From positions 1 to 64,000 of the forward strand of contig NVVR01000002.1 of assembly GCA_002733415.1 (NCBI GenBank): a stretch of DNA of 64,000 nt, read 5' to 3'. A model generated the notes under the pieces. That model was given only the letters and a program-made list of their open reading frames with translations, had not been told where the DNA came from and searched no databases. Each line of letters starts with the position of its first letter. Positions within the stretch are counted from its first letter, which is position 1. The position numbers and the translations under genes were made by a program. The DNA comes from Kordia sp. (lineage in GTDB: Bacteria > Bacteroidota > Bacteroidia > Flavobacteriales > Flavobacteriaceae). This document shows positions 11,386-15,446 of this stretch, in pieces.

Positions 11386-12774
11386 ATGAAAGTCACAGGA
11401 AAGACATTAATCGATTTAGGATTTAGAGAGGGAAGATGGTTTAAGGATGCATTAGCACATATAAATGAGAACGAACTTGAGGGAGAATTACTAACGAATT
11501 ATTTAGATCAATATAAAATGCCGCCAATTCAAGAGCTACATAAAGAAGCAATGGCATTTTCGATAAATATAAAAGCAGAAAATGAATTAGAGGCACAAAA
11601 TGTTGATTCAGTAGTATCCTCCATGGAAAAATTAATGCGAACACCAACAGTAGTTGATGGCGCTATTATGCCAGATGCTTGTCCGGCAGGACCATCAGGA
11701 ACTATACCAGTGGGTGGAGTGGTAGTGACAAAAAATGCAATTCACCCAGGAATGCATAGCGCAGATATTTGCTGTTCTGTGATGCTGACAGATTTTGGAA
11801 AAGCAGATCCTAAAGAAGTGTTAGATGCTGCACATGAAAGCACTCATTTTGGTCCAGGAGGAAGAAGTAGAGAACATCAGTTCCGATTCCCTGATGAGTT
11901 GTTAACCGCGTTTAAAAGTAATTTTTTCTTAAACAATGATAGGTTACTAGGAATGGCCAGAACTCATTTAGGGACCCAAGGAGATGGAAATCATTTTTTG
12001 TTTGTAGGGAAATCGAAGAAAACAGGGAATACAATGATGATTACACACCATGGGTCAAGAGGACCAGGAGCATTGTTGTATAAAAGAGGAATGCAGATTG
12101 CGGAGCAATTTAGAAAGGATATTTCTCCAGAAACCTTAAAGCAAAATGCTTGGATTCCATATAACACTGAAGAAGGGGAGAAATATTGGGAAGCATTGCA
12201 AATAATGAGAACCTGGACTAAGAAAAACCATACCTGTATTCATGATGCTGTTTGTGAAAAAGTAGGAAAGCTACCTGAGGATAGGTATTGGAACGAGCAT
12301 AATTTTGTGTTTAAAAAAGGAGACTTGTTTTACCATGCCAAAGGAGCTACTCCATTAGATGAAGCATTTATGCCAGATATTACAGGTCCAAGATTGGTTC
12401 CTTTAAATATGTCGGAACCAGTGTTAATTGTTTCGGGAAAAATTACTGCGAACAATTTAGGATTTGCACCTCACGGAGCAGGTAGAAATATGAGTAGAAC
12501 ACAACATAAAAAGACGAAAGCGGAATTCACCAATGAGGAAGTTTTTGCCTTGGAAACAGAAGGTTTGGATGTGCGTTTTTATTCTAATGAAATTGATGTT
12601 TCTGAATTGCCAAGTGCCTATAAAAATGCAGGAAATGTAAGAGCTCAAATGGAAGAATTCGGTTTAGGAGAAGTGATTGATGAAGTAATGCCATATGGTT
12701 GTATCATGGCTGGAGATTTTCAGAAAAATGCGCCGTGGAGAGTGAAAAGAAGAAATAGACATAAGAGAAGTTAA
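11386..12774 (+). CDS. Divergent paralog of the RtcB-family RNA 3'-phosphate/2',3'-cyclic-phosphate ligase
   Basis: The RtcB metal-site motifs are present: D.C (HSADICCSV), [19 protein letters not shown] and [10 protein letters not shown]. The usual PDAH motif reads PDACPAG (His to Cys). There is an N-terminal extension of about 90 aa. Confidence 0.85.
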
Positions 12775-12783
12775 ATAAAGATA

Positions 12784-12806
12784 ACTACGCAAAATGACTG
12801 CGTAGG
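12784..12806. promoter_or_regulatory. Palindromic motif ACTACGCA-aaatgac-TGCGTAG, perfect copy, between the rtcB paralog and the NTase gene
   Basis: An 8-bp inverted repeat with a 7-nt spacer. It could be a DNA operator or an RNA stem-loop. Confidence 0.45.
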
Positions 12807-12843
12807 TTGTTTTCATCTTTGACAGGTAATTAAAAAAGAGAAA

Positions 12844-13590
12844 ATGAAAACAGCAATATTAAATAAGTTAGCAAGCATAGAAAAGAAGAAAAATATAGAG
12901 ATACTTTTTGCTTGTGAGTCAGGAAGCAGAGCATGGGGCTTTGCTTCCCCGGATTCAGATTATGATATCCGTTTTATATACAAACATAAAACTGAGTGGT
13001 ATTTGAATTTATGGGAGAAAAAAGATACTATAGAATTTATGACCGCTGAAGATTTGGATGGATCTGGTTGGGATTTACGAAAAGCAACACTCTTATTAGC
13101 AAAGTCTAATGCCTCATTATTGGGTTGGTTGTTTTCGCCAGTAATATATAGAGCTGATGAATCTTTTTTAAAAGAAATACAAACGCTAGCAAACGAAAAC
13201 TTTAATCCAGTAGCTGGTTTTTATCACTTTCATTCTATGAGCAAGAGTTTCTTAGATAAAGTAATTGAAGAGGAAGTGAGTTTAAAGAGTTTTTTTTATG
13301 CTTTAAGAACTACGTTATGTAGTAATTGGATATTGAAAAACGGAACTATTCCTCCAGTTGTATTTGCAGAGTTGCTAGTTTTAGTAGATGCAGATATAAA
13401 GGTAGCAATAGAAGAGCTAGTGGCAATAAAAGCAACTAAAAATGAAAGCTTTCAAGCCTTAAAAAACGATACTTTATTTAACTATTTGAAAGACATGATA
13501 ACAAAAAATAACTTGAATAGAAATTCAGTTTTATTAAATAAAGCTGATGGAGAATCGTTCAATGAATTCTTTTTAAAAACAGTAGTGTGA
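12844..13590 (+). CDS. Pol-beta-superfamily nucleotidyltransferase (RlaP-like candidate), copy 1
   Basis: NTase signature GSRAWGFASPDSDYDIRFIY (GS...D.D). It lies immediately downstream of the RtcB paralog. Confidence 0.6.
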   Translation: MKTAILNKLASIEKKKNIEILFACESGSRAWGFASPDSDYDIRFIYKHKTEWYLNLWEKKDTIEFMTAEDLDGSGWDLRKATLLLAKSNASLLGWLFSPVIYRADESFLKEIQTLANENFNPVAGFYHFHSMSKSFLDKVIEEEVSLKSFFYALRTTLCSNWILKNGTIPPVVFAELLVLVDADIKVAIEELVAIKATKNESFQALKNDTLFNYLKDMITKNNLNRNSVLLNKADGESFNEFFLKTVV

Positions 13591-14657
13591 TGACTATAGC
13601 AGAATTAAAGAAATCGGGAAGCATCATATTTGAATGTATAAGCGGTAGTCGAGCATACGGACTTGACACCGCTACATCCGATACGGATATACGAGGTGTC
13701 TTTATTGCACCAAAAGAGCAGTTTTACGGATTACATTATACCGATCAAGTAAATGATGAAACCAATGATGTTGTGTATTATGAGCTTAAAAAGTTTATAG
13801 GATTGTTATTAAAAAACAACCCAAACATCATGGAGTTATTAAACATGCCAGAGGAATGTATTTTATATAAACATCCTTTGTTTGATTTAATAAAAAAGGA
13901 ATTATTTTTATCAAAACTGTGTAGAAATACGTTTGCTAATTATGCTTTTACACAAATTAAAAAGGCAAGAGGATTGAATAAAAAAATAGTGAATCCTGTT
14001 GATCAGAAAAGAAAGTCTGTAGAAGATTTTTGTTATGTAAGAACAGGGAAACAATCAGTTTTGTTAAGGGGTTTTTTAAATATGAATCAATTAAAAAGTT
14101 CCGATTGTGGTTTGGCAAAAATTACTCATATGAAAGACTGTTATAACCTCTTTCACAATGTATACTTGGACTATAACGGAATAGCTAGAAATGACGCCAA
14201 CGAAGTTTGTTTGAGTTCTATTCCTAAGGAAGAAACTCCTATAGGGTTATTGTATTTTAATGTAGATGGATACTCATCATATTGCAAGAGATACAAAGAA
14301 TATTGGTCATGGGTAGCTAAACGAAATGAAGAACGGTATAAAAGTAATATTTCACATAGTAAAAATTACGATGCTAAAAACATGATGCATACTTTTCGGT
14401 TATTGCATATGGCAAGGGAAATTGGATTAAAAGGCGTCATAAATGTGAGGCGTTCTGATCGAGATTTTCTACTAGCAATAAAAAATGCTGAGTTTGAATA
14501 TGCTGAGTTGGTTGAAAAAGCAGAAGTATTACGACAAGATTTGGATAAAATTTATGAAAGTACAGATTTAATGGAGAAACCAGATGTAGCACTAGTGGAT
14601 AAGCTATTACTGAAATTAAGAGCTATCTATTATGAACAAAGAGTAGAGAAAGACTAA
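13587..14657 (+). CDS. Pol-beta-superfamily nucleotidyltransferase, copy 2 (paralog of the upstream gene)
   Basis: GSRAYGLDTATSDTDIRGVF. Its start overlaps the upstream stop by 4 nt, consistent with translational coupling. Confidence 0.6.
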   Translation: MMTIAELKKSGSIIFECISGSRAYGLDTATSDTDIRGVFIAPKEQFYGLHYTDQVNDETNDVVYYELKKFIGLLLKNNPNIMELLNMPEECILYKHPLFDLIKKELFLSKLCRNTFANYAFTQIKKARGLNKKIVNPVDQKRKSVEDFCYVRTGKQSVLLRGFLNMNQLKSSDCGLAKITHMKDCYNLFHNVYLDYNGIARNDANEVCLSSIPKEETPIGLLYFNVDGYSSYCKRYKEYWSWVAKRNEERYKSNISHSKNYDAKNMMHTFRLLHMAREIGLKGVINVRRSDRDFLLAIKNAEFEYAELVEKAEVLRQDLDKIYESTDLMEKPDVALVDKLLLKLRAIYYEQRVEKD

Positions 14658-14732
14658 TTAGTAATTCTAACGAGCCTTTTTTCTTACTTTTGAGAATAAA
14701 GTAAAAGCATATTTCAATAAACCAAATCTGAA

Positions 14733-15446
14733 ATGACAACGAGAAACAGAGGAAAAGAAGGAAGCGACGATAAGCTTTTTGGAACTTCAAAAATGCAACA
14801 ACTGATAAAGGAGGCGTTACAGGACATGTCCTATTTATTATCTAGAGATTATGCTGATAAATCAGCTGTACAATTGGTAGGGAATCGATATCGTTTAAAT
14901 GTGAGGCAACAAAAAGCGATACGGGGTATGAGTGCCTCAGTTACTCAAGTGGAACAAAGAAAATTAAGTGAGCTATCTGTTAACCAATTAGTAGGACGGG
15001 AAATAATGATTGATGGATTTAATCTATTAATAGTATTGGAAAGTGCATTGTCAGGAGCATATTTATTTAAAGGAATGGATAATTGCTACAGAGACCTTTC
15101 CGGAGTACATGGGAGTTATAAACGAGTACAACAAACAGAAAAGGCATTGTTGTTAATAGGTGATTTTTTAAAAGAGTGTGCGGTAGGAAAAGTTACTTGG
15201 GTGTTTGACAAACCGGTTTCCAACAGTGGTCGATTAAAAACGAGAGTCAGAGAATTAGCCGAAGCACATGGATTTAATTGGGAAGTGATATTAGATAATA
15301 ATCCTGATAAACTATTAGCGGAAAGTAACAAGATTGCAATTAGTTCCGATGCTTGGATATTAGATCGCGCTAAAAGGTGGTTCAACTTAGCAGGGGATTT
15401 AATTGAAAACAAAATAGAGATTACAACTATTATAGAGAGTTATTAA
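14733..15446 (+). CDS. Hypothetical protein, possibly an NYN/PIN-like nuclease fold
   Basis: An IMIDGFNLLIVLES segment resembles the N-terminal IDG.N catalytic motif of NYN domains. This is a weak assignment. Confidence 0.3.
   Translation: MTTRNRGKEGSDDKLFGTSKMQQLIKEALQDMSYLLSRDYADKSAVQLVGNRYRLNVRQQKAIRGMSASVTQVEQRKLSELSVNQLVGREIMIDGFNLLIVLESALSGAYLFKGMDNCYRDLSGVHGSYKRVQQTEKALLLIGDFLKECAVGKVTWVFDKPVSNSGRLKTRVRELAEAHGFNWEVILDNNPDKLLAESNKIAISSDAWILDRAKRWFNLAGDLIENKIEITTIIESY

Follow-up and report, generated by a model that had tools for sequence, protein, structure and literature searches.

We propose that positions 11386-15446 of a 64,000-nucleotide (nt) stretch of a Kordia genome (Kordia sp., contig NVVR01000002.1, positions 1 to 64,000; hereafter the window), which encode a divergent RtcB RNA ligase, two nucleotidyltransferases (NTases) of the RlaP family and a PIN-like nuclease, are part of an RNA-damage response island of about 15 kb (9636-24830). 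According to this proposal the island is a set of interchangeable modules, each transcribed separately and all switched on jointly through a palindromic promoter element and a WYL-family regulator; taken as a whole, we consider this explanation probable. A near-complete set of the modules is present in the window's island, and the base composition, about 32% G+C across the window, shows no break around 11386-15446.

The locus was compared with the best 80 of at least 585 species-representative genomes that encode a relative of this RtcB, retrieved with an alignment of 11 RtcB sequences as the query. The 80 loci are from Bacteroidota (among them Flavobacteriaceae, Crocinitomicaceae, Weeksellaceae, Saprospiraceae and Sphingobacteriales), apart from a bin labelled as Cyanobacteria (L020) and SCB49 (L049), which is unclassified, and the module counts that follow are lower bounds, since many of these loci are short contigs. 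The RtcB in question (11386-12774, plus strand, 462 amino acids (aa)) belongs to what we call the Cys clade, described below, and its constant partner in Bacteroidota is a divergently encoded regulator with WYL and WCX domains, which lies upstream in 67 of the 80 loci. The window's copy occupies 9636-10661 on the minus strand (Pfam WYL 47 bits, WCX 47.2 bits; PADLOC WYL 90.6 bits, the sole match in a PADLOC scan). The modules that are optional around the Cys-clade RtcB are the RlaP pair (RlaP1 in 24 loci, RlaP2 in 20), the COG2454 nuclease (7 loci), the RtcB2-PrfH module (PrfH in 22), a Band-7 protein (15) and tRNA arrays; a TPR protein was counted in 30 loci and an HD-like protein in 6. The position of the RlaP pair also varies, as it may stand before RtcB, after it, or past the regulator.

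A 63-nt repeat is present in three copies in the window, starting at 11321, 12782 and 22997, and contains the core palindrome CTACGCA-N7-TGCGTAG, for which 0.04 copies would be expected by chance. The first copy (ACTACGCA-N7-TGCGCAAT, 11323-11345) lies ahead of RtcB, 12 nt before the TTTG of a -7 box at 11354-11360; the second, a perfect match to the core (12784-12806), lies ahead of RlaP1 together with a promoter-like box; and the third (22999-23021) follows tRNA-His and precedes a tRNA-like gene (23260-23326) and the Band-7 gene, a placement after tRNA arrays that recurs in L006, L012 and other loci. Across 1.40 Mb of related loci, a degenerate form of the palindrome was found 123 times, against 1.35 sites (maximum 4) when dinucleotide-type shuffles were scanned. 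It is present at the RtcB promoter in most related loci, precedes RlaP1 elsewhere too, and also stands ahead of tRNA arrays, TPR genes and several unnamed accessory genes.

Such an element could in principle be a terminator, a repetitive extragenic palindromic (REP)-like repeat or an RNA hairpin rather than a protein operator, and a terminator scan did flag copies 1 and 2 as weak hairpins. We consider this highly improbable. The stem is only 7-8 base pairs long, the 7-nt loop is A-rich and the T-run is not consistent; copy 1 lies between divergent genes, so that no terminator would be needed there; and in 55 of 60 RtcB-proximal sites the palindrome, upstream of genes, ends exactly 12 nt before the TTTG of a -7 box of the Bacteroidetes type. 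Because of this fixed register with the core promoter, and because the WYL gene is the constant neighbour, the most economical reading is that the palindrome is a candidate operator of the WYL regulator. The WYL regulators PafBC, DriD and BrxR/CapW respond to DNA damage or phage. The window's protein resembles them in its combination of WYL and WCX domains and in a promoter-proximal site held in fixed register, with nucleic-acid fragments as the plausible ligand, and differs from them in being attached to RNA-repair genes.

Two further features were seen around the RtcB promoter and downstream of the gene. In about half of the loci, the 5' UTR of the Cys-clade RtcB gene (at about 8900-9000; for example in L004, L006, L012, L013, L035 and L061) contains a covarying hairpin, placed downstream of the promoter and ahead of the ribosome-binding region, with arms such as GCUCCGCCG...CGGCGGAGC, GCUCCACCAG...CUGGUGGAGC and GCUCCAUAAA...UUUAUGGAGC; the window has no such hairpin, and those of L006, L012, L013, L035 and L061 gave no Rfam match at the gathering threshold. 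Downstream of RtcB, accessory open reading frames (ORFs) of 605 aa (11 loci), 751 aa (7), 239 aa (7) and about 214 aa (16) recur, for example at L007 10653-12422, L017 12455-14719, L001 10445-11185 and L005 10947-11591, and several of them are preceded by the palindrome of the RtcB promoter. A Pfam scan of the 605-aa and 239-aa families gave no assignment.

The original prediction described the first RtcB of the window as a divergent paralog in which a His has been replaced by Cys, and this was borne out. The protein contains MPDACPAG (residues 95-102), GNHF (201-204), HHGSRG (221-226), HNF (305-307) and HGAGR (363-367), and where it reads PDACPAG the second RtcB of the window (RtcB2, 16599-18008), to which it is 29% identical, reads PDAHAG. 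It matches Pfam PF01139 (124.9 bits, cut-off 27), with a strong score over the C-terminal two-thirds only, and its AlphaFold2 (AF2) model (predicted local distance difference test score 94.1) is matched by Foldseek to P. horikoshii RtcB (PhoRtcB) and human RTCB (1uc2, 4dwr, 8odo) with probability 1.0 and template-modelling scores of 0.66-0.68. A sequencing error can be set aside, as PD[AS]C is found in 119 of 120 homologs of at least 71% identity, 118 of which also have SAD[IV]CCS. In a search of 1.84 billion representatives, 188 clusters were recovered at E<=1e-30; 66 of 70 full-length representatives at 50% identity are clade-like, and 64 of these 66 have Cys at the PDxC position, down to about 34% identity, with His kept there in two sequences that are otherwise clade-like. 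Judged by these alignments, the variant RtcB is a real, conserved and divergent paralog that makes up a distinct subfamily.

We mapped the active site to that of PhoRtcB by HMMER alignment. Asp97, Cys99, Asp127 and Cys130 of the window's protein correspond to Asp65, His67, Asp95 and Cys98; Asn202 and His203 correspond to Asn202 and His203; and His221, His305 and His363 correspond to His234, His329 and His404. The published ligands in PhoRtcB are Cys98, His234 and His329 for the first metal (M1) and Asp95, Cys98 and His203 for the second (M2) (PMC9745838). By this mapping, all six published metal ligands and the His363 nucleophile are intact in the variant RtcB, and the label of a metal-site motif given earlier to the PDAH segment is imprecise, as His67, the residue replaced by Cys, is absent from the published M1/M2 set. 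We found no mention of PhoRtcB His67 or Asp65 in the RtcB literature covered, which did not extend to Englert 2012 and Maughan & Shuman 2015. In an alignment of 35 sequences, D97, D127, C130, N202, H203, H221, H305, N306, H363, R367 and R371 are invariant, and C99 is conserved at 90% or more.

The clade has two signatures besides Cys99. An extra Cys, Cys129, stands immediately before the bridging Cys, where canonical RtcB has Gly, and is present in 51 of the 64 clade members that have Cys99. In addition, the column of PhoRtcB Glu206, which reads guanine N1/N2 (PMC9745838), is occupied by F, Y, S, N or T in the clade and by E or D in RtcB2 and non-clade sequences. The other guanine contact, Lys480, is also missing, as the variant RtcB ends in IMAG and a basic tail and PhoRtcB in Lys480-Gly. 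We tried the loss of Lys480 as a clade mark and dropped it: the window's RtcB2 and other non-clade RtcBs are likewise non-Lys in that column, which makes the difference non-diagnostic, and only the loss of Glu206 is clade-specific. The stacking Tyr412 is retained in 61 of 64 clade members.

These differences raise the possibility that the variant RtcB is not a conventional GTP/Mn-dependent RNA 3'-phosphate ligase and has been adapted to redox gating or to a different nucleotide, metal or end chemistry, for example capping or the handling of ends that are compatible with RlaP products. Three Cys would lie near the metals in an active site that has lost its guanine-reading Glu, and the sequence is strongly conserved in the clade (70-78% identity across genera). 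In the AF2 model, residues 89-99 form a single beta-strand with Asp97 and Cys99 at positions i and i+2, which would be expected to place them on the same face. On the other hand, no variation is seen in the metal ligands, the His nucleophile, Asn202 or the Arg residues, the stacking Tyr is nearly invariant, and the absence of Lys480 is shared with a canonical-looking RtcB2. We therefore regard an unconventional activity of this kind as somewhat unlikely, and the broader claim that the active site does something different from that of ordinary RtcB as falling between somewhat unlikely and unlikely.

The N-terminal extension of about 90 aa noted earlier is present, but is not special to this copy, as RtcB2 is extended too and the pair aligns from residue 2. 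In the variant RtcB it is a three-helix module, and over its first 36-38 residues there is a weak similarity to the C-terminal part of tRNA_NucTran2_2 (best E 1.8e-5 and 25.2 bits, below the cut-off of 27, in homolog P0049). Some clade members, namely P0125 (837 aa) and records of Cellulophaga phages phi38:1 and phi40:1, carry an intein with a LAGLIDADG homing endonuclease inside the RtcB domain.

The next two genes, RlaP1 (12844-13590, plus strand, 248 aa) and RlaP2 (13587-14657, plus strand, 356 aa), are indeed paralogous NTases with GS...DxD motifs, as had been predicted, and both match PF10127 (RlaP; cut-off 23). They are thus members of an RNA-ligase-associated Pol-beta family and not NTases of the aminoglycoside-resistance or some unrelated type. 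RlaP1 scores 236.2 bits over profile positions 1-247 of 249 and has the motif G27-S28...D39-Y-D41; a sequence search of the Protein Data Bank (PDB) with it gave no match. RlaP2, 27% identical to RlaP1, is a divergent paralog with a long C-terminal region; its PF10127 match (96.5 bits, residues 9-127) covers the N-terminal catalytic half only, where the motif reads GS...SDTD. The catalytic motif is retained in 24 of 25 RlaP1 orthologs and in all 21 of RlaP2. The predicted 4-nt overlap holds if RlaP2 starts at the GTG at 13587, which overlaps the RlaP1 stop codon TGA (13588-13590); it shrinks to 1 nt if RlaP2 starts at the in-frame ATG at 13590. Either overlap implies translational coupling. The start of RlaP2 overlaps the stop of RlaP1 in at least 12 of about 20 loci, RlaP1 and RlaP2 nearly always occur together in the 80 loci, and the association of RlaP with an RNA ligase gene is seen in the window, where the pair adjoins RtcB, and in about 24 related loci. 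Pseudomonas RlaPs add one or two nucleoside monophosphates (NMPs) to RNA 3'-OH ends in vitro, with a preference for mimics of cleaved tRNA (PMC12776372), and the role proposed for RlaP is to put back nucleotides that 'smart' ribotoxins such as RloC have taken away (PMC12776372; PMC7824862). By analogy, RlaP1 and RlaP2 of the window are predicted to add NMPs, an activity demonstrated only for the Pseudomonas enzymes (PMC12776372).

The ORF at 14733-15446 (plus strand, 237 aa) encodes a COG2454 protein, which combines a helical DUF434 domain (57 bits) with DUF5616 (190.9 bits), a nuclease domain of the PIN-like (FEN-like) type; each score exceeds its cut-off. The original prediction had seen an IDGFN motif reminiscent of NYN nucleases. 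The motif is there (residues 93-97), and so are a PIN/FEN-like fold and a cluster of conserved acidic residues, so that this ORF does have a nuclease fold. As to NYN, COG2454, as DUF434 plus a PIN-like domain, has been placed in that group (Matelska et al. 2017, PMC5499597); the structural matches seen here are FEN-like and not NYN structures, and Pfam NYN gave no match. A PDB sequence search gave no match for this protein either. Bacterial COG2454 genes were described as mostly monocistronic, and a role in archaeal tRNA 3' maturation has been proposed (PMC5499597). On the other side of RtcB, the ORF at 10663-11301 (minus strand, 212 aa) has an H-x3-H...HD motif, and its homologs are named 'HD domain-containing' or 'HD superfamily phosphohydrolase' in their source records; no Pfam, NCBIfam or PDB sequence match was found for it. 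It is a possible end-healing phosphohydrolase. ORFs antisense to the RtcB, RlaP and COG2454 genes were considered and rejected as real genes; those within RtcB recur in related loci only as its shadows.

The adjacency and common orientation of the four genes from RtcB to COG2454 had suggested that they form one RtcB-NTase-NTase-nuclease unit, that is, a single pathway in which RtcB ligation obligatorily follows nucleotide addition, CCA-like or to restore 3' ends, and nuclease trimming. The coupling of RlaP1 to RlaP2 and the extension of damaged tRNA mimics by RlaP (PMC12776372) are in line with this. However, the unit does not survive comparison: RtcB mostly has the WYL regulator alone as its neighbour, without RlaP or COG2454, the RlaP pair moves about, COG2454 is found in only 7 loci, and RlaP1 has its own promoter and copy of the operator. 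The chemistry does not favour it either. RlaP products carry a 3'-OH, which RtcB cannot ligate, and this mismatch persists in the single-pathway model. The authors of the RlaP study flag the same problem, and suggest either an unknown 3'-kinase or that two nucleotides are added and one is then removed so as to leave a 3'-phosphate (PMC12776372). The idea that this RtcB needs nucleotide addition rather than simple re-ligation is not supported. We give the single obligatory pathway little credence. We also consider unlikely a further reading, in which the Cys-clade RtcB would be a biochemically distinct ligase, with a nucleotide other than GTP, a softer or redox-sensitive metal centre or an end chemistry that accepts RlaP-extended ends. 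Together with the RlaP pair and the PIN-like nuclease it would bridge 3'-OH addition to sealing, and the WYL protein would sense damaged RNA and switch on the whole island, so that RNA repair would be inducible independently of RtcR.

The Cys clade extends over Bacteroidota, Pseudomonadota and phages. RtcBs with the PDAC and CC signatures are encoded by cultured phages of Cellulophaga (phi38:1, phi40:1, Calle), Tenacibaculum (PTm1, PTm5), Rhizobium and Bradyrhizobium, at 45-65% identity, and by a phage-like metagenomic contig. Source records label all of these, and the Pseudomonadota member, plain RtcB, and our literature search, with Burroughs & Aravind 2016 outside its coverage, found no paper that describes or remarks on the subfamily. 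In view of the phage members, the cluster might be read not as a host stress regulon but as a counter-defence cassette, mobile or of phage origin, that protects against tRNA-targeting toxins or defence nucleases; its patchy, modular content and the fact that large phages typically carry tRNA arrays and RlaP (PMC7824862) point the same way. Against this, the G+C content is uniform, no integrase or phage structural genes are found within 9.6-24.8 kb, and the regulator and operator are conserved across many free-living genera. A cassette of this kind therefore seems to us an unlikely origin, and we return to the host RNA-damage response as the preferred explanation.

The second module of the island (16599-20443, plus strand) matches a published architecture gene for gene over 16599-19826 (PMC6514570): RtcB2 (16599-18008; Pfam RtcB 281.9 bits; TIGR03073 148.1, below its cut-off of 271.8) is followed by the PrfH equivalog that adjoins it (18031-18723; TIGR03072 231.5 bits, cut-off 166.65), a TPR protein (18728-19279; Pfam/NCBIfam) and a small NTase-like protein (19281-19826). 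An RNase T-type exonuclease (19850-20443; RNase_T 59.2 bits) comes next, then a tRNA array (21773-23326, plus strand) and finally an SPFH/Band-7 protein (23730-24830, plus strand; PF01145 92 bits), which belongs to a recurring group of RNA-repair accessories. The array, delimited with Rfam, ARAGORN and repeat analysis, comprises 7-9 tRNAs and degenerate tRNA-like repeats. Its tRNA genes are those for Cys, Tyr, Asp, Leu, Arg, Gln and His, with two low-scoring tRNA-like genes, and three tandem degenerate repeats that resemble tRNA 3' halves, about 80 nt each, lie at 22227-22530. Arrays of 5-21 tRNA genes were present in 20 of 81 sources, the window counted. The weak tRNA-like gene (23260-23326, 37 bits) stands ahead of the Band-7 gene, as does copy 3 of the palindrome, an arrangement that recalls the pairing of Band-7 with tRNA-like RNA mentioned for RNA-repair systems.

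The non-coding parts of the island are conserved as well. The long spacer between the COG2454 gene and RtcB2 (15447-16598, plus strand) is conserved across genera by blastn and is partially duplicated at 20562-21345. The spacers after the two repair modules (15456-16110 and 20562-21345) are 76-91% identical in blocks, and are 65-80% conserved across genera. Within them, strong terminators (for example GCGTCCAA...TTGGACGC-T7 at 15866-15897 and 21094-21122) and promoter-like boxes suggest several small transcripts. Upstream of RtcB2, at 16335-16480, lies a conserved element of about 110 nt plus a terminator, with homologous blocks in 21 related loci (for example L012 11392-11540 and L015 12508-12660). 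Its outer helix, CCGAAGU/GCUUCGG, shows CG-to-UA swaps in both directions, one position of its inner hairpin is occupied by four pair types, and another covarying stem, AUACAU/AUGUAU, was seen by eye. A 27-aa ORF within the element was rejected as a peptide gene, its amino acids being poorly conserved while the helices covary. The element matches no Rfam family, and Rfam over 11250-16650 returned no family, only sub-threshold matches driven by terminators. We regard the element as a candidate for a new structured RNA associated with the RtcB2-PrfH module. Elsewhere in the window, a Flavo-1 RNA (RF01705, 52.4 bits) at 54354-54475 has no relation to the RtcB/RlaP cluster.

Under the preferred explanation, ribotoxin attack on tRNA or rRNA, or some other translational stress, would cause the WYL regulator to act on the palindrome and turn the modules on. 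The variant RtcB would reseal breaks with 2',3'-cyclic-phosphate and 5'-OH ends through a His363-NMP intermediate. Where nucleotides have been lost, the RlaP1/RlaP2 pair would add one or two to the 3'-OH end, and the COG2454 nuclease, possibly with the HD protein, would trim or heal ends. RtcB2-PrfH would rescue damaged ribosomes and the tRNA array would provide replacement or decoy tRNAs.

Several points weigh against this explanation. The proposed gene functions and the induction are drawn from family membership, synteny and a cis element. Binding of the WYL protein to the palindrome is a prediction, and Pfam finds no helix-turn-helix domain in that protein. Beyond Bacteroidota, members of this RtcB clade are found in unrelated contexts, as judged from two loci only, a Pseudomonadota metagenome-assembled genome and the phage-like contig. 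In the former (L081 2023-7111, JAWVHC010003167.1), the Cys-clade RtcB has rplU-rpmA on one side and two GNAT genes and obg on the other; these surroundings are a housekeeping neighbourhood for translation, and they include no WYL regulator. The island context is thus lineage-specific, because elsewhere the clade sits between rpmA and obg or in phage genomes. Finally, direct coupling of RlaP to RtcB is chemically unexplained, since the one leaves a 3'-OH and the other needs a 3'-phosphate. PIN/FEN-like nucleases are metal-dependent and normally leave 5'-phosphate and 3'-OH ends, which are of no help to RtcB, and because a 3'-OH would be expected from the PIN-like domain of COG2454 too, this protein is not an obvious answer to the mismatch.

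The use of RtcB and RlaP together for RNA repair is a kind of system that has already been described. RtcB-RlaP(-RtcA) RNA-repair operons are attributed to Burroughs & Aravind 2016, as cited in PMC6514570 and PMC7824862, and the biochemistry is from Pseudomonas (PMC12776372). The window resembles them in that RtcB adjoins PF10127 genes, with predicted restoration of nucleotides on cleaved tRNA before ligation. It differs in having two coupled, divergent RlaPs instead of one, no RtcA and no RtcR, an RtcB of the Cys subfamily, and an RlaP pair that is optional and has its own promoter and operator. The rtcBA operon of E. coli and Salmonella is controlled by RtcR, a CARF-sigma54 activator that senses damaged tRNA (PMC7790460, PMC4012209). 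Here, too, an RNA-repair ligase is paired with a regulator of its own, which is encoded divergently and comes from a ligand-sensing family, and induction, known for rtcBA, is predicted; the regulator, however, is WYL/WCX and not a CARF-AAA+ bacterial enhancer-binding protein, the promoter is of the Bacteroidetes type with a palindrome, and there is no cyclase. The published PrfH-RtcB2(-TPR-NTase) system (PMC6514570) is the window's second module, and the variant RtcB itself has no PrfH partner. In Anabaena, impaired translation induces both a tRNA L-array and rtcB, whose promoters carry shared repeats (PMC8421152), so that in both cases a long tRNA array and rtcB have a common promoter-embedded repeat. 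That system belongs to another phylum and has a direct repeat over the -10 box and transcription start site, whereas the window has an inverted repeat upstream of the -7 box and an adjacent candidate regulator, the WYL protein. The window's COG2454 protein has the two domains, conserved acidic residues and FEN-like structural mapping of the published family (PMC5499597), and in the window and 7 related loci its gene lies inside an RNA-repair island, in contrast to the mostly monocistronic bacterial members. Apparently new are the Cys-clade signature, the near-constant pairing of the RlaPs, the presence of COG2454 in a bacterial RNA-repair island, and a putative WYL/palindrome regulon that would join these genes to PrfH-RtcB2, tRNA arrays and Band-7.

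RtcB enzymology has been built on a few GTP/Mn-dependent enzymes, and a large, conserved subfamily with an altered active site is an obvious target for it. The locus also bears on how the 3'-OH products of RlaP feed a 3'-phosphate ligase, with the paired RlaPs, COG2454 and the HD protein as candidate helpers, and it gives bacterial COG2454 a functional context, RNA repair. In Bacteroidota, the WYL regulator and its candidate operator may be what switches on RNA repair, ribosome rescue and tRNA arrays, which, if true, would parallel enterobacterial RtcR and the tRNA-array/rtcB regulon of Anabaena.

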